DNA from: an uncultured Actinomyces sp.
GTDB taxonomy: Bacteria; Actinomycetota; Actinomycetes; S36-B12
Assembly (NCBI GenBank): GCA_964537955.1
Contig: CAZICY010000002.1
Coordinates: forward strand, 13,904-77,903
DNA: 64,000 nt
Reading direction: 5' to 3'
Shown: piece by piece, positions 6,351-20,583 of the stretch
How positions within the stretch are numbered: position 1 is the stretch's first letter
Layout of the letters: every line of letters begins with the position of its first letter
Made by a program: the position numbers and the translations under genes
The notes under the pieces: generated by a model
Told to the model about the DNA's origin: nothing
The model's input: the letters and a program-made list of their open reading frames with translations, nothing else
Databases searched by the model: none

Positions 6351-7840
6351 CCTCAGACGGCGACTTCCCCGACATCGAACCGGACGTGATCGGCGAGGAC
6401 GCCCCCTGGGTCGATGACCTCGCCGAGGACGACGCCTCGGACGCCCTCATCGCCGCCGCCCGGGCCGCCGCGGTGGCCGAATTCGGCGACATCGACGAGC
6501 TCGACGCCGATGCCGACGCCGATGACGACCTGCTCCCGGTGGTCGCCGTCGTCGGCCGGCCCAACGTCGGCAAGTCCACGCTCGTCAACCGGATCCTGGG
6601 CCGGCGCGAGGCCGTCGTGGAGGACATTCCCGGCGTCACCCGGGATCGCGTCACCTACGAGGCCGACTGGAACGGCCGCCGGTTCCTGCTCATGGACACC
6701 GGCGGCTGGCAGCGGGACGCGCGCGGCATGGCCGCGCAGATCGCCGCGCAGGCCGAGCGCGCCATGAATGACGCGGACGTGGTGCTCCTCGTCGTCGACG
6801 CGACGGTGGGCCCCTTGGACGCCGACGAGTCGGTCGTGCGTGTCCTGCGCAAGGCGGGCGTGCCCGTGCTGCTCGTGGCCAACAAGGTCGACGACTCCCG
6901 GACCGAGTCCGATGCGGCGTCGCTGTGGTCGCTGGGCCTGGGGGAGCCGCATGCCGTCTCGGCACTGCACGGGCGTGGGAGCGGTGACCTCCTCGACGAG
7001 GTTGTCGCCCTGCTTCCCGAGGAGGGCCAGGGCCGCGTCCGAGGCGGTGGCCCACGCCGAGTGGCGCTGCTCGGCAAGCCCAATGTGGGGAAGTCCTCCC
7101 TGCTCAACAAGCTCGCGGGGGAGTCCCGGGTCGTCGTCGACTCCGTGGCGGGGACGACGGTGGACCCCGTGGACGAGCTCATCGTCCTGGGCGGCCAGGA
7201 GTGGTGGTTCGTCGACACGGCGGGCATCCGCCGCCGGGTCCGCGAGGCCAGCGGTCATGAGTACTACGCGAGCCTGCGCACGCGCGCCGCACTGGAGAAG
7301 TCCGAGGTCGCACTCGTCCTCGTCGATGCATCCGAGCCCCTTGCCGAGCAGGACCTGCGGCTGTTCTCCCTGGTCGTCGAGACGGGTCGCGCCCTGGTCA
7401 TCGCCTACAACAAGTGGGACCTCATGGACGAGGACCGCCAGCGCTATCTCGAGCGCGAGATCGATCGCGAGCTCGTCCAGGTCCGCTGGGCGCCGCGCGT
7501 CAACGTCTCGGCCCTGACGGGACGCCATGTCCAAAAGCTCGTCCCCGCGCTCGAGGAGGCGCTCGCAGGCTGGGAGACGCGGATCCCGACATCGCGCCTC
7601 AATGCCTTCCTGGCCGAACTCGTCGCAGCGCATCCCCACCCGCTGCGGGGCGGCAAGCAACCGCGCATCCTCTTCGGGACGCAGAGCGGCACGCGCCCCC
7701 CGACGTTCGTCCTCTTCACCACCGGATTCCTCGAGGCCGGCTACCGGCGCTTCATCGAGCGGCGCCTGCGCGAGGAGTTCGGATTCGCCGGCACTCCGAT
7801 CCGCATCAACCTGCGCATCCGCGAGAAACGCCGCCGCTAG
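6347..7840 (+). CDS. der: Ribosome biogenesis GTPase Der (EngA)
   Basis: Two GTPase domains ([32 protein letters not shown]) and KH-like C-terminus (FGFAGTPI). Confidence 0.96.
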
Positions 7841-8004
7841 TTCGTTGAGTGGCGCCTCGTGCGGTCTCGCGCCGGCGTCTCGCGCCCACCAGCCGCCACG
7901 TATCGACGTCTCGTAGAGAGAGGCGCCCGGCGGCGGGGAGCTTTGCCCGCTCGGATAGGCTTTCGCGGTTCCCGCAAGCCAGTGATCCTGGGACTGCGGG
8001 GCGG

Positions 8005-8078
<74 letters not shown>

Positions 8079-8206
8079 CAGAAGGAATTCCGCTCCACGG
8101 CGGGGGCTCTGCCCCGGCTTTGCCCCCACTTGGCGGAGCAGATGCCGCTCCTCATGCTGCTACGCCCGGGGTTGACCAGGGGTGGTCGATCTGATGGAGT
8201 CACGTC

Positions 8207-8935
8207 ATGTCCTCCCATATGCGATCTGTCCTTGCCGTGGCTGCCTCAGTGGCCATCGCTCTTCCGATGGTGCTTGCCCATCCCGCGCAGGCAGCCGCCT
8301 ACGCCCCATTGAGCGAGCGCCACCTGTCGGCTTCCTCGCTCAGCGCAGGTGACGTTCCACGATGGATGTCGCGTGGCACCGAGCCGCAGGCCCAGCAGAC
8401 CTTCCGCAAGGGACGCGCGGCGGGTGCACCCGCGTTGTGTCTGGATCGGAAGGGCGAATCCCTTGAGGGCAGGCAGGCGCGCCAGTCGATGGATTCGTCG
8501 GTCGCCCTGCGCATGAACACCGATGTCGGTTCCTACATCTACCAGTACCGCACGCGCGAGGCGGCTGTGCGTGCCTGGAGCGATCTGAATTCGCGGGCTG
8601 CGCAATGTCAGGGCCGCGTCGAGGTGGACCTGTCAGACGACGGGATCAAGACCAGGATGGTGGTCATTACCGAGGTGAGCCAAACCGCACCTCTCTATGG
8701 CACGGCGGGCCTCACCCTGTTCATTGACTTCGACATCGTGGTGGACGCTTTCGATACGGAATTCGCCTTCGTCGGTGATTCCTACGTCAGCTACTACCTG
8801 GCCGGGACATCCATCGTGGGTGTGGCGTTCACCTCAAGCGAAGGGACCCGCGGCGTGGGTCGGGTGACGCGCGGATTTGTCGACACCATGTCCATCGTCA
8901 TTGCCCAGCGGGTGGAGCGCCGCAGCCTCCGATAA
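8207..8935 (+). CDS. Secreted hypothetical protein, possibly PknH-like extracellular fold
   Basis: N-terminal signal peptide ending AQA-A; two Cys; YQY..REAAVRAW...C pattern. Confidence 0.6.
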   Translation: MSSHMRSVLAVAASVAIALPMVLAHPAQAAAYAPLSERHLSASSLSAGDVPRWMSRGTEPQAQQTFRKGRAAGAPALCLDRKGESLEGRQARQSMDSSVALRMNTDVGSYIYQYRTREAAVRAWSDLNSRAAQCQGRVEVDLSDDGIKTRMVVITEVSQTAPLYGTAGLTLFIDFDIVVDAFDTEFAFVGDSYVSYYLAGTSIVGVAFTSSEGTRGVGRVTRGFVDTMSIVIAQRVERRSLR

Positions 8936-8951
8936 CGAGGACGCGCGTGTG

Positions 8952-8983
8952 GACGTGCGGGCCTATGGCTAGGCCCGCACGTC
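8952..8983. terminator. Perfect 14-bp hairpin between convergent genes, likely bidirectional terminator
   Basis: GACGTGCGGGCCTA-tggc-TAGGCCCGCACGTC between stops at 8935 (+) and 8995 (-). Confidence 0.7.
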
Positions 8984-8994
8984 GCACGTGCTGA

Positions 8995-9528
8995 TCAGCT
9001 GTAGCCGAGGGACAGCGACGACTGGCGGAACCCGATCGCGCGGTCTTGGGCGTAGGGGCCACCCGTGGTGACCGTGATCTGCGAGCAGCCGTCGAACCTC
9101 GACAGGCGAAGCGGTGAAGAGCTGTGACCCGTCGCGGACCAGCCGATACCGAGGGAGTTGCCGGAGAAGATCGGACGGAAGGGGTTCACGAGCTTGACCT
9201 TGAGCACCTGGCGCTTGTCGCCGCAGGCCGCCGTGAAGCGCACGCTGCTCGCCGAGTAGCCCGACCCGCCATCGACCCGGTTGGACACGAGGGCGTCCAC
9301 ATTGAGGAAGACGGTGCCCGTCTTCGCGGCCTGCAGGGACGTGATGTTGAAGGTCCACGACGCCGTATCCGTGTCCTGGTGCACCCAGGTCCAACTCCCT
9401 GACGGGGTGCCATTCGAGCTGAAGGCGGAGGCGTTGTCGATGCCTACGGCCGCAGAGGCCATCCCCGGTGTGGCGAACAAGAGGCCAGCAGCGGCAGACG
9501 CAGCAGCGATCGATCCAAGAATCTTCAC
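8995..9528 (-). CDS. Secreted beta-rich hypothetical protein
   Basis: AGGAG RBS before GTG at 9528; signal peptide (..GMASA-A); Ser/Thr/Gly-rich, two Cys. Confidence 0.7.
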   Translation of the reverse strand: MKILGSIAAASAAAGLLFATPGMASAAVGIDNASAFSSNGTPSGSWTWVHQDTDTASWTFNITSLQAAKTGTVFLNVDALVSNRVDGGSGYSASSVRFTAACGDKRQVLKVKLVNPFRPIFSGNSLGIGWSATGHSSSPLRLSRFDGCSQITVTTGGPYAQDRAIGFRQSSLSLGYS

Positions 9529-9669
9529 GGGTACTCCTGTGCTCGATGTTCCCCGGAGACCACCGGAGAGACAGCCACGTGCCGCAGCCGTCCCGATCAC
9601 CATCGGCCTGCATGCTTTCCCTGGGAAGGGCTGGAGCGGTCCCCGATCGGTCACTCCTACACTGCCCGC

Positions 9670-10455
9670 GTGTCCCTGGCCTGGTCCTACTGCGTGCTCG
9701 ATGCAGCGGGGCGCGTGGTCGACGAGGAGGCAGCGGACGCGGTGCAGCCTACGGCCAGCGTGGGCAAGGTCTTCCTGCTGTGCGAAGCGGCGGAACAACT
9801 CGCGGACGGCAGGCTCGATCCCGGCATGCGCGTCGCCCGGGACCCACGGGTGGCAGTCGCCGACTCGGGCCTGTGGCAGCACCTCGCCGAGGACTCGCTG
9901 CCTCTGGCGGATGCCTGCGTGCTGGTCGCCGCGGTGAGCGACAACTGGGCCACCAATGTCCTGCTCGACAGGATCGGTCTCGAGGCGGTGGCCGATCGCG
10001 CTCGGGCGCTGGGCTGCCGCGAGAGTGGACTGTTCGACCGCGTGCGCGACGTACGCACTGCTGACGATCCCGAGGGACTATCGGCGGGCACGGCGCGCGA
10101 GCTGGCAGAGGTCGCTCGGCGCATCCACCAGGCTGCCGCCGGACGCGCAGGGGAGGGCATCAGCGTGGGAGCCGCGCGTCTCGTGGAGGGCTGGCTGCTC
10201 ACCGGAGTCGATCTCAGCATGGTGGCCGCGCCCTTCCGCCTCGATCCGCTCTCGCACGAGCAGGGTCCGCTTCGCGTATGGAGCAAGACCGGGACGGACA
10301 CGGGCGTCCGCGCGGATATGGGCGTCGCCTGGAGCGCCTCCGACATGGTGTCCTACGCCGCGATCGCGTCCTGGGGTCCCGGCGACGAGGTCATCGACGT
10401 CGCCTTCGCGCGCATGCACGAACTCGGGGCCCGGCTCGCGTCGCGCATGTGGTGA
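9670..10455 (+). CDS. Serine hydrolase, class A beta-lactamase-like, no signal peptide
   Basis: SxxK (TASVGK), SDN and KTG motifs. Confidence 0.8.
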   Translation: MSLAWSYCVLDAAGRVVDEEAADAVQPTASVGKVFLLCEAAEQLADGRLDPGMRVARDPRVAVADSGLWQHLAEDSLPLADACVLVAAVSDNWATNVLLDRIGLEAVADRARALGCRESGLFDRVRDVRTADDPEGLSAGTARELAEVARRIHQAAAGRAGEGISVGAARLVEGWLLTGVDLSMVAAPFRLDPLSHEQGPLRVWSKTGTDTGVRADMGVAWSASDMVSYAAIASWGPGDEVIDVAFARMHELGARLASRMW

Positions 10456-10485
10456 GGCACCGGCGTCCGACATAGACTCCGCGAC

Positions 10486-11367
10486 GTGTACGACGTCGCC
10501 CTCAGTGTGTCCGCGTGCGCGCGGTCCGGCACCCGCGCCGACGTCGCGTGGATGATCGCCCCCACGCCCTCGAACGACGCGGTGGCCTTCACCCCGGGCG
10601 GAGGCCGCGTGGGGCGGCTGGCGGGCGGGGCCTTCGACGGGCTGCTGGGGGACATCGCCGCCCGCAAGCTGTCGAGGGGGCGCGTGGTCCGGCATGAGGT
10701 CACCCCCATCGAGGCACCCCTGTGCGGGCTCGCCGTGGGCACGCCCGTGGAGTTCCTCATCGTCCCGGCCGAGCAGCTCCCGTCCGATATCTGGCCGCTC
10801 CTGCTCGCCCACCGGCCGGTCGGGATCCTCGCCGAGACCCAGGACGGCGACGTCATGTCCCTGGAGGTCGCCGCACCCGACACGGCGCAGGGCCGACTGG
10901 CCGAGATGCTGCGCGGGTCGGACCCGGCAGTGGTGGCCGAGGGGAGCGCCGTCATCACGGTGTTCGCCCCCATCCCTCGGCTGGTCATCGCCGGGGGAGG
11001 GCCCTTCGCCGAGGCCCTCGCTGCCCAGGGGCGCCTCCTGGGCTGGCAGGTGGCTGCCGAGACCCGGCCGGAGATGGTGACGGGCCTGGCCGCCAGCCTG
11101 TCCGATCTCGATGCCATCGTGGTCATGGGTCACGACGTGGAGACGTCGAGCCGCTGCCTGCTGGCCGCCCTGGAGAGCGATGCCGGCTACGTGGGGGCCC
11201 TGGGCTCCGAGGCGATGCAGCAGGCGCGGGCGGACTGGCTGGCCTATCGGGACGTCACGGACATCTCGCGCGTCCACGGGCCCGCCGGGCTGCCGCTGGG
11301 GGGTCGCACCCCCGCGGAGGTCGCCGTCTCCATCGTGGCCGAGATCCTCGACGAGCGGGCCGACTAG
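10486..11367 (+). CDS. XdhC/CoxF/CoxI-family molybdoenzyme maturation protein
   Basis: RLVIAGGG, VVMGHD, YVGALGS, VHGPAGLPLGGRTPAEVAVSIVAEI. Confidence 0.85.
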   Translation: MYDVALSVSACARSGTRADVAWMIAPTPSNDAVAFTPGGGRVGRLAGGAFDGLLGDIAARKLSRGRVVRHEVTPIEAPLCGLAVGTPVEFLIVPAEQLPSDIWPLLLAHRPVGILAETQDGDVMSLEVAAPDTAQGRLAEMLRGSDPAVVAEGSAVITVFAPIPRLVIAGGGPFAEALAAQGRLLGWQVAAETRPEMVTGLAASLSDLDAIVVMGHDVETSSRCLLAALESDAGYVGALGSEAMQQARADWLAYRDVTDISRVHGPAGLPLGGRTPAEVAVSIVAEILDERAD

Positions 11368-11730: not shown

Positions 11731-12609
11731 ATGTATCCACCACGTTTTGCCTACGACGCTCCCGCGTCCGTCGCTGAGGCGGTCGCGATCCTCGACCGCA
11801 GCAACGGCGAGGCCAAGGTGCTCGCCGGCGGGCAGAGCCTCATCCCGATGCTCAAGCTGAGGTTCGCCTCGCCCGAGCGCGTCGTCGACATCAACAACAT
11901 CCCGGGGCTCGACTACCACCGCCTCGATCCGGACGGCACGCTGCGCATCGGCGCGCTGTGCCGCCACGAGGACCTGGAGTACTCCGACGTCATCGCCGGC
12001 ACGTTCCCGACGCTGCACCAGGCGGCGGCCCTCGTGGCCGACCCGCTCGTGCGCACGCGCGGCACCTTCGTCGGGTCCGTCTGCCACGCCGACCCCCAGG
12101 GCGACTGGGCCGCCACGATGATCGCGCTGGGGGGCCGCATCGTCGCCCAGGGCCCGAACGGCCGCCGCGAGATCGCCATGAAGGACTTCGTGCTCGGCCC
12201 CTTCACCAATGCACTGGCCTACAACGAGATCGCCGTCGAGGCCGTGATCCCCCCGGCGAAGGGCAAGGCGAAGGGCGGCTACCTCAAGCTGGAGCGGCGC
12301 GTCGGCGACTTCGCCACCGCGTCCGTCGCCATCGCCTTGGACATGGACGGCCAGACCGTGAGCCGGGCCGGCTGCGCGCTGGCGGGCGTCGGCGGCAAGA
12401 CCATCGACGCCAACGACGCCATCTCGGGGGCCCTGGTCGGCAAGACGCTCGACGCCGCGAGCATCGCCGCGGCTGCCGAGGCGGTGGCGGCGGCCGCGGA
12501 CCCGCGCACCGACCATCGGGGCTCCGCGAGCTACAAGCGGCAGGTGGTCAAGACCTTCGTCACCCGCATCCTCACCAACATCGCCCAGTCCGAGCAGAAG
12601 GCAGCCTGA
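11731..12609 (+). CDS. coxM: CO dehydrogenase medium (FAD) subunit
   Basis: AGGQSLIPMLKLR, RGTFVGS..HADP, GDFA; first gene of M-S-L order. Confidence 0.92.
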   Translation: MYPPRFAYDAPASVAEAVAILDRSNGEAKVLAGGQSLIPMLKLRFASPERVVDINNIPGLDYHRLDPDGTLRIGALCRHEDLEYSDVIAGTFPTLHQAAALVADPLVRTRGTFVGSVCHADPQGDWAATMIALGGRIVAQGPNGRREIAMKDFVLGPFTNALAYNEIAVEAVIPPAKGKAKGGYLKLERRVGDFATASVAIALDMDGQTVSRAGCALAGVGGKTIDANDAISGALVGKTLDAASIAAAAEAVAAAADPRTDHRGSASYKRQVVKTFVTRILTNIAQSEQKAA

Positions 12610-12610
12610 C

Positions 12611-13132
<522 letters not shown>

Positions 13133-13140
13133 GAGACGAC

Positions 13141-15519
<2,379 letters not shown>

Positions 15520-15520
15520 C

Positions 15521-16111
15521 GTGATCATCACCCAGTCCTTTGACATCGACCAGCCGGTCGACAAGGTGTGGGAGTTCTTCGACGACGTGCCGCTCGTCGC
15601 GGCGTGCGTGCCGGGTGCGAACCTGACCAACAAGGTCGACGACGACCACTACCAGGGCGATGTCGTCATCTCAGCGGGTCCGGTCAAGCTCGAGTTCTCC
15701 GGTGAGCTCAAGATCAAGGACCGCAACGAGGCCAAGAAGACCCTCGTGCTCGATGGCGCCGGCGCCGACAAGAAGGGGCGCGGCAACGCCACGACCCAGC
15801 TGGACGTCGGGCTGCAGCCGATGGGTGGTGCGTCGACGAGAGTAAACATCTCCATGGACCTGCAGATCTCGGGTGCGGCCGCGCAGTACGGACGCGGACT
15901 CGTGCAGGACGTCACGGGAGTCCTCATCGACCAGACAGCAGGGTCGATGAAGGTGCGCATGCAGGCCCTCGCCCAGGGTCAGGACCCCTACGCGGTGGGT
16001 GGCCCTCAGGCTGCCAGTGGCATCGCCATCGGTTTCACAGCCTTCATGCGCGCGGTCAAGCGAGTCTTCGGCCGCTTCTTCCTTCCCTACAACCCGGCTC
16101 CGAGCCGCTGA
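15521..16111 (+). CDS. coxG: CoxG (SRPBCC-domain) protein with C-terminal amphipathic helix
   Basis: VW.FF.D...VAAC.PGA, GPVK..F.G, G.AAQYGRG; follows coxL. Confidence 0.85.
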   Translation: MIITQSFDIDQPVDKVWEFFDDVPLVAACVPGANLTNKVDDDHYQGDVVISAGPVKLEFSGELKIKDRNEAKKTLVLDGAGADKKGRGNATTQLDVGLQPMGGASTRVNISMDLQISGAAAQYGRGLVQDVTGVLIDQTAGSMKVRMQALAQGQDPYAVGGPQAASGIAIGFTAFMRAVKRVFGRFFLPYNPAPSR

Positions 16112-16125
16112 GAAGGAGGTAGGAC

Positions 16126-16380
16126 ATGAGCCTGTGGTGGATCGGAAACATCATTCTCCTCATCGTCGTCGTACCCGTGCTCGTGGCGCTCCTCAATCGG
16201 CTCCTGGCCGCCACGGAGAGCGTTCGAGGCGCGGCAGACGACACGCTGGCGGGGGGAGTAGCCCTCATCGGCGAACTCCACAACACGCCCGAACTCCTCG
16301 CGGAGACCGACGTGGTCATTGAGGAAGTCGCCAATGGCGCCGTGCGCTACGCCGGCCCCGTCTCGAAGCTGCTCGGATAG
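16126..16380 (+). CDS. Small single-TM membrane protein 1 (84 aa)
   Basis: AAGGAGG RBS; hydrophobic N-terminus then heptad-like amphipathic helix. Confidence 0.8.
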   Translation: MSLWWIGNIILLIVVVPVLVALLNRLLAATESVRGAADDTLAGGVALIGELHNTPELLAETDVVIEEVANGAVRYAGPVSKLLG

Positions 16381-16389
16381 GAGAGGCAC

Positions 16390-16617
16390 ATGCCAGCAGA
16401 AGCGATCGTGACCCTCATTCTCGCCGCACTGATCATTGCTGCGGCCGCGCTGGGACTCCTGCGCGTCATCTTCCATCTCCGGGCTGTCGCGAAGACGCTG
16501 GATGCACTCGACGGTGGCGTCAAGGTCATCGTCCAGCAGACCTCGACGGTGACCCCGGTGGTCGCCTCCGTCAACTCCAGCCTCGCCCCGGTGCGGGCCT
16601 TCGCGGAATCGATCTAA
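16390..16617 (+). CDS. Small single-TM membrane protein 2 (75 aa)
   Basis: AGGAG RBS; same TM plus coiled-coil layout. Confidence 0.8.
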   Translation: MPAEAIVTLILAALIIAAAALGLLRVIFHLRAVAKTLDALDGGVKVIVQQTSTVTPVVASVNSSLAPVRAFAESI

Positions 16618-16626
16618 GGAGAGCAC

Positions 16627-16881
16627 ATGGACTTCACCGGACATGAAGGCTGGCTCGTCGGCTACGTCATCGGCCTCGTGGTCGTGCTCGTCGTGGTTGC
16701 GCTGGTCGTGCCGATTCTGCTCCTGGCCTACCGCATCGGCAATCAGGCGGGTGGCATCCTCGACGGGCTCAAGCAGGCCGAGATCAATACCGCCGGCCTG
16801 GCCGGACTCAACGAGACCATCGCATCCGCGCTGGCCATCATCGATGGCTTGAAGCGCGGCCGGACCCGGCTGGGAGGCTGA
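16627..16881 (+). CDS. Small single-TM membrane protein 3 (84 aa)
   Basis: AAGGAG RBS; same layout. Confidence 0.8.
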   Translation: MDFTGHEGWLVGYVIGLVVVLVVVALVVPILLLAYRIGNQAGGILDGLKQAEINTAGLAGLNETIASALAIIDGLKRGRTRLGG

Positions 16882-16882
16882 C

Positions 16883-17158
16883 GTGGATCCCCAGGTCGAG
16901 CAACTCTGGCAGATGGCCAACATCCTCGGCATCGTCGTCGTGGTGGCCGTCGCCCTGCTCCTCACCATTCTCGTGCTGCTCGTCGCACGCATCCGCAAGC
17001 GCGTCGCCGCCATCAAGGCGACGCTCATCGCCGCCAAGGCCAACACCGCTGACACGGCGCTCATCACGACCACGGCCGGCGGCGTCGAGGCGGTGCTGGC
17101 CGAAGGCCTCGAGCACCACCTCTTCCTCGGCCGCGTCCTGGACAAGGTGCGGTCATGA
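16883..17158 (+). CDS. Small single-TM membrane protein 4 (91 aa)
   Basis: GGAGG RBS, GTG start; same layout; EHH near C-terminus. Confidence 0.8.
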   Translation: MDPQVEQLWQMANILGIVVVVAVALLLTILVLLVARIRKRVAAIKATLIAAKANTADTALITTTAGGVEAVLAEGLEHHLFLGRVLDKVRS

Positions 17159-17514
17159 GCGCCCTCGCCTGGTGGTCGGTCATCGACATCGTCGCCCTCA
17201 TCGCGGTCCTGGCGATCTACCTCTACGTCGTCGGCTCGCAGCTCAAGGCCATCGCCGCAGACCTGGAGGAGTCCGCCGAGTTGGTCTGGCAGATCAAGAA
17301 GGACGCTGAGGCGATCCAGCCGGGACTGACGTCGATCAACACCACGGGTCGCGTCGTCGCGGGAGCGCTGCCGCTGCTCTACGGCATGGGAGAGGGCATC
17401 GTGGCCGGTGCGACCTTCCAGCACGACGAGCACGAGGCCGAGGGAGTCGCCCGTCCGGCGATGGGCACGCGTCGCTCGCGCCTGCTCGAGGGCGTGGGAA
17501 TCACGCTCGACTAG
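17155..17514 (+). CDS. Small single-TM membrane protein 5 (119 aa)
   Basis: ATGA overlap with previous gene; same layout plus C-terminal extension. Confidence 0.8.
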   Translation: MSALAWWSVIDIVALIAVLAIYLYVVGSQLKAIAADLEESAELVWQIKKDAEAIQPGLTSINTTGRVVAGALPLLYGMGEGIVAGATFQHDEHEAEGVARPAMGTRRSRLLEGVGITLD

Positions 17515-17523
17515 CCGAGCCCG

Positions 17524-17976
17524 TCACGTCGACGGGGCGGATCCTGGCTGGGCCGGGTCGCGCCCCGTCGACAGGGCATCGGTGACCGGCGTCTCGTACT
17601 CGCCGATCCACTCGTCCTTCCACGCCTGGTCGAACTTCTCGACGTTGCAGCTCGGGTCGTAGATCGCGATGAGCTCGCGCGAGATCTGCTCGCGATGCGC
17701 CCTCGTGCCCCCGGGCACCTCCAGCCAGCAGACATGCAGGTTGAACTTGCCGTCGGCGCGCTTCACCCAGGCCTGGGCGCGGGGATGGCGCAGTGGGAAG
17801 CCCTCGGCTGACAGGTCATCGGAGTGCCCGACGTAGATCACGGAGAACTCCTGCGGCCGTGCGGGATTGGTCTTGGCCAAGACGGCGTAGACAGCCGGCA
17901 CGGGCGGAGGCGTCCAGCCGGCGAGCGAGCGGGGCCCTTCGAAGGAGTAGCCGGCGAGGCTGCCGAGGCGGATCAT
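17524..17976 (-). CDS. GIY-YIG-like hypothetical protein (catalytic residues apparently substituted)
   Basis: AVYAV...IYVG and ELIAIYDPSCN; ATG at 17976 overlaps upstream stop. Confidence 0.6.
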   Translation of the reverse strand: MIRLGSLAGYSFEGPRSLAGWTPPPVPAVYAVLAKTNPARPQEFSVIYVGHSDDLSAEGFPLRHPRAQAWVKRADGKFNLHVCWLEVPGGTRAHREQISRELIAIYDPSCNVEKFDQAWKDEWIGEYETPVTDALSTGRDPAQPGSAPST

Positions 17977-18266
17977 TCCGTCTCGTCGAGATCGGCGTAG
18001 TCCTCGTCCTCGGCGATGGTCTCGGCCCGAGCCACGGGCCACGCCGGCAGGGACGTGGTCGCCACCGCCTCGGTGAACTTCTCGATGGCGATGTCGACGG
18101 CGGCGTCGGAGTTGTCGGCCTCGACGATGATCTGGGCGCCGTAGCCCATCGTGCCGAAGCCCGAGGCAATGCCGCCGAGGCCCGCGACCGCGTCGGCGAG
18201 CTCGACGACCTCCTCGAGGCTCACCTCTCGATCGCCCTCGGTCTCGAGGGAGACGCTGTATCTCAT
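17973..18266 (-). CDS. Acidic small hypothetical protein (possible ferredoxin-like fold)
   Basis: 2 bp after coxE stop; alternating strand/helix pattern. Confidence 0.7.
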   Translation of the reverse strand: MRYSVSLETEGDREVSLEEVVELADAVAGLGGIASGFGTMGYGAQIIVEADNSDAAVDIAIEKFTEAVATTSLPAWPVARAETIAEDEDYADLDETE

Positions 18267-18268
18267 GG

Positions 18269-19432
18269 CTATCCCACCTTCGGCAGTCGCTCGGCCAGGC
18301 GCTCGAGGCTAGCGAGGTTGTGGCCGGAGTGCACCTCGTCGATGTAGGGATCCGCGACGATCATGCCCAGGGATGCCGGGACATAGACCGGGGCGTCGCC
18401 GCGGTGCGGATTGACCCAGATGACGCGATGGGCCAGGCGGCCCAGAGCCTCCATGGCCTCCTCGAGCTGCGCAGGATCGCCGCGATCGAGCCCGTCCGAG
18501 CAGATCACGACGATCGCGCCCCGGCCCAGTCGTGTGCGCCGCGCCTCGCGGGTGAACTCCTTGAGGGAGTCGCCGATGCGCGTGCCGCCATCCCAGTCGA
18601 GTACGGCCTCACCTGCCTGGCGCATCGCCTGGTCGGGGTCTCGCCGGTCGAGTGCGCGCGTGATGCGTGAGAGTCGCGTGCCGAAGCAGTACACCTCGAC
18701 CTTGGCGTTGGCGCGCTTGGCGGAGTAGGCGAACTGCAGCAGATTGCGCGAGTAGTCGGCCATGGATCCGGACACATCGAGGATGAGGACCAGGGGGCGG
18801 AGCTTGGTCTTGCGCTGCTTGTAGGCCAGCTCGCGGGGTTCGCCCATGGAGCGCATGGTGTCGCGCGCCATCCGGCGCATGTCGAGCCGCGCGCTGCGGC
18901 GTGCCCGAGTCGTGCGATGGGTGCGGCGTCGCGGGGGAGTGACGCGCATGCGCGCCATGAGGCGGCGCAACTGGCGCAGCTCCTCGTCGGAGCAGTCGGC
19001 GAAGGCCTTGTGCCGGTACACCTCCGAGGTGCTCGCGACGTAGCCCAGCTTGGCCTCGTCGGGGCTCACGTCCCCTGGCAGGCCCTCCTCCGTGTTCGGG
19101 ATCTCGAGCGTGGCCCCGGCGTTGGCCGAGGCGCGCATCATCCGCTTGCGCTCGTCCGTGCGGACCGGATCGACGTCGAGGAAGTAGGTGCGGAAGACGA
19201 TGTTGTAGATCGGGACGTGCTCGCGCCGGCGGACGAGGGTCGCGCGGCCGGACCAGTAGACGTCCATGAGGTCGGTGACGTCGAGGTGGGCGCTGCCCTC
19301 GCAGAAGGTGAGCACGTCGTCCGTGCCCACGGGGAGTCCTGCCGCGCGCAGGGCGTGGCAGAAGCCGACGAGGAGCGCGTCGAATCCGTCGGGCTGGCCC
19401 GGATCCGACAGGGCGATCTCAGGCGACGACAT
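18269..19432 (-). CDS. coxE: CoxE-like VWA-domain protein
   Basis: MIDAS DVSGSM, FGTRL, WDGGTRIG, SDGLD, WVNP. Confidence 0.88.
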   Translation of the reverse strand: MSSPEIALSDPGQPDGFDALLVGFCHALRAAGLPVGTDDVLTFCEGSAHLDVTDLMDVYWSGRATLVRRREHVPIYNIVFRTYFLDVDPVRTDERKRMMRASANAGATLEIPNTEEGLPGDVSPDEAKLGYVASTSEVYRHKAFADCSDEELRQLRRLMARMRVTPPRRRTHRTTRARRSARLDMRRMARDTMRSMGEPRELAYKQRKTKLRPLVLILDVSGSMADYSRNLLQFAYSAKRANAKVEVYCFGTRLSRITRALDRRDPDQAMRQAGEAVLDWDGGTRIGDSLKEFTREARRTRLGRGAIVVICSDGLDRGDPAQLEEAMEALGRLAHRVIWVNPHRGDAPVYVPASLGMIVADPYIDEVHSGHNLASLERLAERLPKVG

Positions 19433-20291
19433 CCTGGATGCTCTTCGAGGCGAAGTCCAGGTCGTCGCGGTCCTTGATCACGGCGCCGAGGGTGTCGAGG
19501 GCGGCGTCGTCGGTGAGGGAGTCCACGCCGAGGGCATCGAGGCTCTCCGCCCAGTCGATGGTCTCGGCGACGCCGGGGGGCTTCTCGAGGTCCATCTCGC
19601 GCAGTCGATTGACGGCGGCGACCACCTGGGCGGCGAGCGCGGCCTCGACCTGCGGCAGTCGCGTGCGCACGATCGCCACCTCGCGGTCTGCGGGAGGGAA
19701 TCCGATCCACGTGTAGAGGCAGCGGCGCTTGAGGGCGTCATGGAGCTCGCGCGTGCGGTTGGAGGTGAGGATCACGATGGGCCTGGCCTCCGCGCGGATC
19801 GTGCCCATCTCGGGGATCGTCACCTGGAAGTCGCCCAGGAGCTCGAGCAGGAAGGCCTCGAACTCGTCGTCGGCGCGGTCCACCTCGTCGATGAGCAGGA
19901 CGCTGCGATCACCGGCCCGCACGGCCTGGAGGAGGGGGCGCTCGAGGAGGAAGCGAGGGCCGAAGAGGTCCGCCTCGGCATCTGCGGCGTCCGCCTGGCT
20001 CAGGGAGCGGATGTGGAGCATCTGACGGGCGTAGTCCCACTCGTAGAGCGCATGGTGGATGTCGATGCCCTCGTAGCACTGCAGGCGGATGAGGTCCCGG
20101 CCCAGCATGGTGGCGAGGGTCTTGGCGAGCTCGGTCTTTCCGACGCCGACCTCTCCTTCGAGCAGCAGCGGCTTGCCGAGCTTGAGGGACAGCAGGACGG
20201 ACGTGGCGAGGCCGCGGTCGGCGATGTAGCCCTGGGCGAGGAGGTCCTCGGTCAGCCCGGGGACGGTCAGGGAGTCGAAGGCGCTGCTCAC
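19419..20291 (-). CDS. coxD: CoxD/MoxR-family AAA+ ATPase
   Basis: GEVGVGKT, RLQCYEG, LLIDEVD, TSNRTRELHDALKRRC, PGVAETIDW. Confidence 0.9.
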   Translation of the reverse strand: MSSAFDSLTVPGLTEDLLAQGYIADRGLATSVLLSLKLGKPLLLEGEVGVGKTELAKTLATMLGRDLIRLQCYEGIDIHHALYEWDYARQMLHIRSLSQADAADAEADLFGPRFLLERPLLQAVRAGDRSVLLIDEVDRADDEFEAFLLELLGDFQVTIPEMGTIRAEARPIVILTSNRTRELHDALKRRCLYTWIGFPPADREVAIVRTRLPQVEAALAAQVVAAVNRLREMDLEKPPGVAETIDWAESLDALGVDSLTDDAALDTLGAVIKDRDDLDFASKSIQDVVA

Positions 20292-20298
20292 GCGATGC

Positions 20299-20583
20299 TC
20301 AGTTCGGGTCGCCGAAGACGAGGTCGGCGAGAGACCCGCTGCCCAGCTTGCCCTCACGGGCCAGGGTGTTGCGCCAGGCCTCGCGCAGGTCCACGCCCTC
20401 CTCGGCGAATCCGTCGAAGGTGACGTCCTTCATGTTGCGGCAGGCCTTCGTCGGGCTGCACTCGGCCTCGAGGTCCTCGAGTGCCCCCGGGGTGCCCTGC
20501 CAGACGGTGCGCAACACGTCTGCGGGGCCCGGCGAGTCGGCCACGCCGCCTGCGTCGGGCCGACCCTGCGCGTCAGCGTCCAT
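20299..20583 (-). CDS. Small hypothetical protein leading the coxD-coxE operon
   Basis: GGGAGG RBS before ATG 20583; 7 bp from coxD start; CSPTKAC. Confidence 0.6.
   Translation of the reverse strand: MDADAQGRPDAGGVADSPGPADVLRTVWQGTPGALEDLEAECSPTKACRNMKDVTFDGFAEEGVDLREAWRNTLAREGKLGSGSLADLVFGDPN

Follow-up and report, generated by a model that had tools for sequence, protein, structure and literature searches.

The stretch of DNA analysed here, called the window below, comprises 64,000 nucleotides of an uncultured Actinomyces sp. (GenBank assembly GCA_964537955.1, contig CAZICY010000002.1, positions 13,904 to 77,903 of the forward strand). It carries a cluster for a molybdenum-containing CO dehydrogenase (Mo-CODH), in which coxM, coxS, coxL and coxG are directly followed by five small genes, named here p1 to p5. 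Each of their products appears to combine one transmembrane (TM) helix with a long amphipathic helix. An earlier note, made by reading the letters, had singled out these five genes as a candidate membrane module of CO dehydrogenase (CODH). The genes concerned lie as follows, the first three being named from their open reading frames (ORFs) and translations.

11731-12609, + strand: coxM
12611-13132, + strand: coxS
about 13144-15519, + strand: coxL, with an AYRCSFR loop in its translation
15521-16111, + strand: coxG, 196 aa; Pfam COXG, 1.2e-17; stop codon 14 bp before the start of p1
16126-16380, + strand: p1, 84 aa; TM helix at about residues 5-23, then predicted cytoplasmic helices; subgroup (1,3,4)
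16390-16617, + strand: p2, 75 aa; TM helix at about residues 6-24, then a predicted cytoplasmic helix; subgroup (2,5)
16627-16881, + strand: p3, 84 aa; TM helix at about residues 14-32, then a predicted cytoplasmic helix; subgroup (1,3,4)
16883-17158, + strand: p4, 91 aa, GTG start; TM helix at about residues 17-35, then a predicted cytoplasmic helix; subgroup (1,3,4)
17155-17514, + strand: p5, 119 aa; TM helix at about residues 9-27, one helix on to residue 86, then a low-confidence tail; subgroup (2,5)

The ORF calls agree with the initial description of five ORFs of 84, 75, 84, 91 and 119 aa after coxM-coxS-coxL-coxG, separated by 1-14 bp or joined by an ATGA overlap. The spacers measure 14 bp between coxG and p1, 9 bp between p1 and p2 as well as between p2 and p3, and 1 bp between p3 and p4, the ATGA being shared by p4 and p5. 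Good Shine-Dalgarno-like sites precede p1 (AAGGAGG, 16113-16119, 6 nt before the start), p2 (GGAGAGG, 16380-16386), p3 (AAGGAG, 16616-16621) and p4 (GGGAGG, 16872-16877), and the one before p5 is weak (AAGGTG, 17144-17149), in line with the four individual ribosome-binding sites noticed at first. The naming of the upstream genes also holds, with the COXG match and, in the large subunit, the AYRCSFR loop, which we take to be the form I active-site motif. An XdhC-like gene is also found upstream, in addition to coxM, coxS and coxL. None of p1-p5 scores above the curated cut-off of any family in Pfam or NCBIfam, cox accessory families included; the adjacent gene does match COXG.

The common build of the five proteins could be examined at several levels. 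One N-terminal-proximal window of 19 residues in each of them reaches a mean Kyte-Doolittle hydropathy of 2.6-3.5. The segment behind it displays a hydrophobic periodicity of 3.4-3.5 residues, which lies above all 500 shuffles for p1, p2, p3 and p5; for p4, 49 of the 500 shuffles reached the observed value. Hydropathy and periodicity thus agree with the short N-terminus, single TM helix and heptad-like helix that had been read by eye in each protein, the periodicity of p4 being the weaker part. According to the positive-inside rule, the positively charged flank of a TM helix faces the cytoplasm. Among the family members, the mean number of Lys plus Arg rises from 0-0.18 ahead of the TM helix to 2.1-2.7 over the 15 residues that follow, and these residues are more abundant after the helix than before it in 176 of 178 proteins. 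Because of this excess and of the rule, the long helices are predicted to be cytoplasmic and the N-terminus to lie outside (N-out/C-in), which would place the helices in the same compartment as CODH.

The AlphaFold2 monomer of p5 consists of a helix at residues 3-86, stretches with a predicted local distance difference test score (pLDDT) below 50 at 93-101 and 103-105, and a helix at 106-113; that of p1 has helices at 2-52 and 55-83 and a mean pLDDT of 75.7. Two invariant motifs stand out, EGLEHHLFLGRVL.KVR, which closes the cytoplasmic helix of p4, and PAMG.RRSR, which lies in the low-confidence tail of p5. Sequence and profile searches of the PDB found no natural solved relative for p5, p4 or p1. 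Designed coiled-coil bundles and barrels do match the p5 profile (best 3.9e-14), a likeness of composition and heptad pattern and not of kinship. In a four-chain prediction run without controls, p4 was scored as the partner of p3, p5 and p1; the scores (interaction prediction score from aligned errors, ipSAE) came to 0.25 and 0.28 for a mark of 0.32, values that speak neither for binding nor against it. As far as sequence goes, the build fits a membrane-anchored coiled-coil stalk.

Relationships between the five proteins were assessed by profile-profile comparison with hhalign, using deep alignments of 31-42 sequences each and reversed-sequence controls, which reached at most 9.3%. High values were obtained for p2-p5 (98.6%), p3-p4 (98.5%), p1-p4 (97.5%) and p1-p3 (95.1%). 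A bridge between the two subgroups (1,3,4) and (2,5) is provided by p2-p3 (91.3%), followed by p2-p4 (68%) and p3-p5 (56%), and the pairs p1-p2 (7.6%), p4-p5 (5.5%) and p1-p5 (2.5%) stay at control level. Only p3-p4 was clear (95%) with shallow alignments. The profiles thus point to a single paralogous family with two subgroups, the very ones that had been proposed by eye. Together with the conserved gene order described below, this profile similarity bears out the view of five diverged paralogs kept together in an operon-like unit.

How the set is conserved among close relatives was analysed in a collection of species-representative genomes, where 334 stretches contain a p5 relative; the best 80 of these 334 loci were mapped by tblastn with the window proteins, cox proteins included, as queries. 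The order coxG-p1-p2-p3-p4-p5 is found in all 55 loci that reach at least 2.1 kb upstream of p5, and of the 34 that reach at least 7 kb, 33 also have coxM, coxS and coxL upstream (exception L079). The tight linkage of the set to form I cox genes is thereby established for this clade. Median identities of p1 to p5 to the window proteins amount to 81, 76, 83, 83.5 and 77% in these related loci (69 loci for p1), to be compared with 72% for CoxG, 80% for CoxM and CoxS and 91% for CoxL. Since their medians match those of the cox subunits, p1-p5 are real genes, conserved like CoxM and CoxS. At the level of the genus, p5 is present in 20 of 24 other genomes, and the four without it also have no orthologous CoxL (best CoxL matches 60, 60, 38 and 34%), a joint absence that represents the co-loss of one operon. 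In the source genome (86% complete), a Pfam search detected no large subunit of a [NiFe]-hydrogenase above the cut-off, so that the set can serve only CODH there.

Most of the 80 related loci bear the names of Nanopelagicales or Actinomycetota metagenome-assembled genomes (MAGs). In a large protein collection, the p5 search returned 1338 relatives, those with a name being mostly called "hypothetical protein" of Actinomycetota MAGs, besides a few Joint Genome Institute names of unrelated functions that look automatic; the p5 profile found 207 clusters at 50% identity. The region is also covered by metatranscriptome contigs of two studies, from libraries labelled freshwater or lake water. One such contig of 1882 nt spans positions 16043-17600, and another of 246 nt, identical to the window, bridges p1 and p2. 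These contigs are weak evidence of expression, a single transcript not being demonstrable and carry-over of DNA being possible; coverage gaps in single RNA runs carry no meaning.

Downstream of p5, a convergent unit occupies the opposite strand, the last two of its genes being named from the appearance of their sequence and their position.

17524-18042, - strand: o172, 172 aa
17973-18266, - strand: o97, 97 aa
18269-19432, - strand: CoxE-like gene
19419-20357, - strand: CoxD-like gene

Neither o172 nor o97 has a match in Pfam or NCBIfam. Of the 64 related loci extending 3.2 kb or more downstream, all but L066 (63 of 64) keep both genes and the CoxE-like one on the strand opposite to the set. 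Elsewhere in the cluster, an extra gene of about 0.8-1.1 kb separates coxL from coxG in 28 of 40 related loci (for example at about 7400-8370 in L029 and about 4458 in L042). It gives a weak XdhC-like match in some of these loci (about 31% identity), and is missing in the window and 11 other loci.

A wider picture emerges at the scale of the phylum. The p4 profile was searched in 401 genomes drawn evenly from it and found relatives in 31, with none in most of the large-genome families of this sample. The contexts were read in 28 of these 31 carriers over about 20 kb each (the unpublished G088, G160 and G188 being left out), with the window cox proteins, the p1-p5 profiles and hydrogenase proteins identified by Pfam in one locus. 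They can be grouped as follows.

Set after coxG, in the window arrangement: 4 genomes (G000, G422, G252, G419)
p3-p4-p5-p1-p2 directly upstream of coxM: 3 genomes (G276, G185, G428)
p3-p4-p5-p1-p2 upstream of coxM at a distance of 2-6.5 kb, other genes intervening: 3 genomes (G340, G250, G198)
Set beside [NiFe]-hydrogenase structural or accessory genes: 17 genomes
Set beside neither cox nor hydrogenase genes: 1 genome (G292)

The idea of a CODH membrane module, as put forward in the earlier note, therefore stands for its linkage to cox genes (10 genomes), but not for its specificity to CODH, given the 17 hydrogenase-linked genomes. CoxL of the six genomes with the upstream type, in which the set adjoins coxM or lies within about 7.5 kb of it, is 56-58% identical to that of the window, and one of these genomes, G198, has two further copies of the set elsewhere in its genome. 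In nearly every locus, each small gene can be assigned to one best-scoring type, and their succession remains p3-p4-p5-p1-p2, of which the window order p1-p2-p3-p4-p5 is a circular permutation. In six loci (L134, L137, L138, L139, L142 and L145), the small- and large-subunit genes of the hydrogenase flank all five types. Several other hydrogenase loci have a split set, with p1-p2 by a DUF1059 gene and p3-p4-p5 by the small-subunit gene, surrounded by NifU-like, CooC-type and TPR genes. As judged from these profile matches, p1-p5 belong to the same five-member set as the small genes of Actinomycetota [NiFe]-hydrogenase clusters.

Two separate recruitments of the set to cox were considered with a tree of concatenated p3, p4 and p1 (28 rows, loci without one of the three types being excluded). 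It places the window type with the sets of the split, group 1m-like kind, and joins the between-subunit type to the one upstream of coxM, both groupings having a support of 95 in the Shimodaira-Hasegawa-like approximate likelihood ratio test (SH-aLRT); a single cox-linked clade was not rejected by the approximately unbiased (AU) test (p 0.31). Further afield, the profile of the between-subunit p1 type has 738 matches, of which the 120 best listed are all close relatives, the named ones from Rubrobacter or Rubrobacteraceae. In the ESM Atlas the nearest clusters are unnamed and come from Chloroflexota, Actinomycetota and Gemmatimonadota; they are to be taken as leads only.

Comparable proteins have already been described in hydrogenase clusters. 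In the group 1l [NiFe]-hydrogenase, five short predicted TM proteins, HylTM1-5, are reported to be encoded between hylS and hylL (Ortiz et al., bioRxiv 10.1101/2020.08.06.239558), and AlphaFold modelling presented in the passages of a 2026 paper that deal with them shows tube-like scaffolds anchoring Hyl to the membrane (PMC13554262). Like the window set, they are five tandem short single-TM proteins, and their position between the subunit genes is the one filled by homologs of the window set, in the order p3-p4-p5-p1-p2, in the six Actinomycetota loci just mentioned. The role proposed for them, a membrane scaffold for a soluble trace-gas enzyme, is also the one considered here. In the window, by contrast, the five genes belong to a form I Mo-CODH cluster, where they come after coxG. 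The set would thus correspond to HylTM1-5, on the basis of arrangement and of homology among Actinomycetota loci rather than of the Hymenobacter roseosalivarius sequences.

[NiFe]-hydrogenase clusters belonging to group 1m are reported to contain two small single-TM proteins of 82-92 aa (Ray et al. 2022, PMC9561532). The gene content of group 1m (NifU-like, CooC-type, TPR and DUF1059) is matched by the hydrogenase loci in which p1- and p2-type genes of 80-90 aa adjoin DUF1059 (L124, L128, L132, L135 and L136). The same loci also have p3-, p4- and p5-type genes across the structural genes, which the relevant passages of PMC9561532 do not mention. With these three types beyond the structural genes, the 1m-like loci have all five members, though as a split set. 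A match to an already characterised family, which the earlier note had raised as a possible objection, applies in part: small TM proteins with names are in print for hydrogenase clusters, but to our knowledge neither HylTM1-5 nor those of group 1m have been experimentally characterised. As for CODH, no paper placing such a small TM set beside Mo-CODH was found in a literature search that did not cover supplementary tables, and the relevant passages of the HylTM hydrogenase papers make no mention of CODH.

What could such a set do for two enzymes as different as these? Mo-CODH and [NiFe]-hydrogenase have no common fold, cofactor (Mo-Cu vs Ni-Fe) or maturation system. They do share a soluble cytoplasmic state and the delivery of electrons to membrane quinone, as reported for Mo-CODH and hydrogenases (bioRxiv 769216 and the pertinent passages of PMC12202499 and PMC10017518). 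Because of these two shared features, and because anchored cytoplasmic coiled-coil helices are kept beside both enzyme classes, the set is probably a shared membrane dock for soluble gas-oxidising enzymes. In a more definite form, to which we give about an even chance, it would be a hetero-oligomeric membrane stalk that docks CODH. One copy each of p1-p5 would come together as a bundle or tube. Each protein would have its N-terminus outside, one TM helix and a heptad-patterned cytoplasmic helix of 50-60 residues, the TM helices holding the assembly in the membrane and the cytoplasmic coiled coil forming the stalk. This stalk would keep soluble CoxMSL and the quinone carrier CoxG at the membrane, where electrons from CO could then pass efficiently to menaquinone.

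The five proteins might also be the quinone path itself, as a five-helix barrel whose hydrophobic lumen leads menaquinone to the enzyme or to CoxG. The precedent is HucM, whose C-terminal region forms, according to PMC10017518, a coiled-coil tube with a hydrophobic lining and room for menaquinone, amphipathic helices linking here too a soluble gas-oxidising enzyme to the membrane. Both enzyme classes are moreover tied to respiratory quinone, with menaquinone shown for Mo-CODH and predicted for Hyl (PMC12202499, PMC13554262), and designed bundles and barrels are the best PDB matches of p5. However, this last likeness reflects heptad composition only, and a dedicated quinone carrier, CoxG, is kept beside the set. 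HucM itself is a homotetramer with peripheral membrane association and no N-terminal TM helix, and no HucM-type family came up in Pfam scans of p1-p5 or of 106 family members, HucM not having been compared directly. A lumenal path for quinone looks, on balance, unlikely.

A membrane platform for maturation or assembly, holding the apo-enzyme and accessory factors of the CoxD/E type or of the Hyp/CooC type, would account for the position of the set among accessory genes, namely the CoxD/CoxE-like unit in the window and NifU-like, CooC-like, TPR and Hyp genes on the hydrogenase side. These accessory genes and the cofactors they relate to have nothing in common, so that a shared maturation factor is hard to picture; the common trait of the enzymes is membrane coupling, and conservation at the level of the subunits suits a stoichiometric partner. 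Such a platform appears somewhat less likely than a quinone path. Even less credit is due to general envelope or scaffold proteins merely travelling with the operons. This idea draws on FacZ of Staphylococcus aureus, a DUF948 protein described, in the relevant passages of PMC10914604, with an N-terminal TM helix, a coiled coil in the cytoplasm and a tail that is disordered and positively charged. The set is of the same build, down to the short outside N-terminus and, in p5, the basic tail, and weak DUF948 (PF06103) matches at E <=0.01 occur in 2 of 31 p2, 3 of 33 p5 and 2 of 42 p4 family members. All of them stay far below the Pfam cut-off, the best score in the window being that of p2 (15.2 bits, E 0.024, for a gathering score of 37.2). 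According to the same passages, the role of FacZ is in cell division and its predicted assemblies are homo-oligomers. Furthermore, 27 of the 28 examined carriers have the set beside cox or hydrogenase genes, and the five orthologous types hold their order across contexts, which leaves this last explanation very improbable.

Several points weigh against the docking stalk as well. Mutual binding of the five proteins, their contact with CoxG or CoxMSL and the effect of this contact are what we infer. The 80 syntenic loci are essentially the operon of one lineage and do not count as independent observations. Of the 401 genomes, 88 have a CoxL at least 56% identical to that of the window, and the set lies beside cox in only 10; with so few CODH genomes carrying it, it must be dispensable for CODH in general. 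G292 has a coxL cluster (72% identity) that lacks the set, its p3-p5 being on a different contig. No published description of such genes was found for the CODH system of M. smegmatis. Finally, CoxG is kept alongside the set, not only in the window but also, within the same cluster, in four of five upstream-type genomes. In M. smegmatis, where Mo-CODH is described as soluble yet membrane-associated and CoxG as the carrier of menaquinone, CoxG is itself anchored by a C-terminal helix (Kropp et al. 2025, PMC12202499, in the passages on CoxG), so that a separate anchor is not obviously needed.

The relation to CoxG deserves a closer look in this respect. Its C-terminal helix is, like the role proposed for the set, a membrane-attachment element of the Mo-CODH system. 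This anchor is part of CoxG, whereas the window has a CoxG of 196 aa with a C-terminal extension plus five separate proteins. CoxG of the upstream-type locus L140, with 146 aa, consists of the SRPBCC domain alone. The set was considered as a replacement of CoxG and rejected as such, since coxG remains in the cluster in the four genomes just cited; its retention indicates that the set adds to CoxG. Fusion of a CoxG domain to the long p2-type proteins (152-254 aa) of upstream-type loci was also rejected, none of the seven examined giving a Pfam match.

Some further observations concern the neighbourhoods of these sets. On the cox side, two upstream-type loci (L146 10483-12006 and L131 about 7348-9610) have longer relatives, of 246-258 aa, immediately upstream of the set; these match the p5, p3 or p4 type and have no Pfam match above cut-off. 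Small globin-like genes, recognised by eye from N-termini resembling those of truncated haemoglobins, adjoin extra or upstream-type copies of the set (L148 10460-10843, L146 6963-7337), with MoaA- and MoeA-like genes, also recognised by eye, nearby. On the hydrogenase side, L129 (3750-6924) and L130 (10847-13947) have a second large-subunit gene (570-606 aa), directly behind which come p3-, p4- and p5-type genes together with a conserved one of about 135 aa; both genomes also hold a full set beside another hydrogenase. A CooC-like P-loop gene carries an in-frame stop at the same place in two genomes (L128 18635-19417, L124 17002-17500), which may reflect a split gene, recoding of the stop or an error common to both. 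In L125, genes that read in translation like the large and small subunits of RuBisCO (8807-10724) are separated by some 5 kb from a p3-p4-p5 set with CooC-like genes.

The hand-over of electrons from soluble trace-gas enzymes to the membrane has been only partly solved, through the HucM tube for Huc and through CoxG for the mycobacterial Mo-CODH; the hydrogenase Hhy has been reported to be membrane-associated without any TM region (bioRxiv 769216). The set described here is carried by many uncultured Actinomycetota genomes, and, should its role be docking or access to quinone, it provides a concrete and testable candidate for the missing membrane link and would tie the scavenging of CO and that of H2 to one shared piece of hardware. 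The most far-reaching form of this idea, which we regard as unlikely, would see in the five-subunit helical barrel a universal aerobic trace-gas adaptor, plugging Mo-CODH or high-affinity [NiFe]-hydrogenases into the membrane, leading menaquinone through its lumen and moved between kinds of operons, and it would form the normal route of CO electrons into the respiratory chain in abundant freshwater Actinomycetota.

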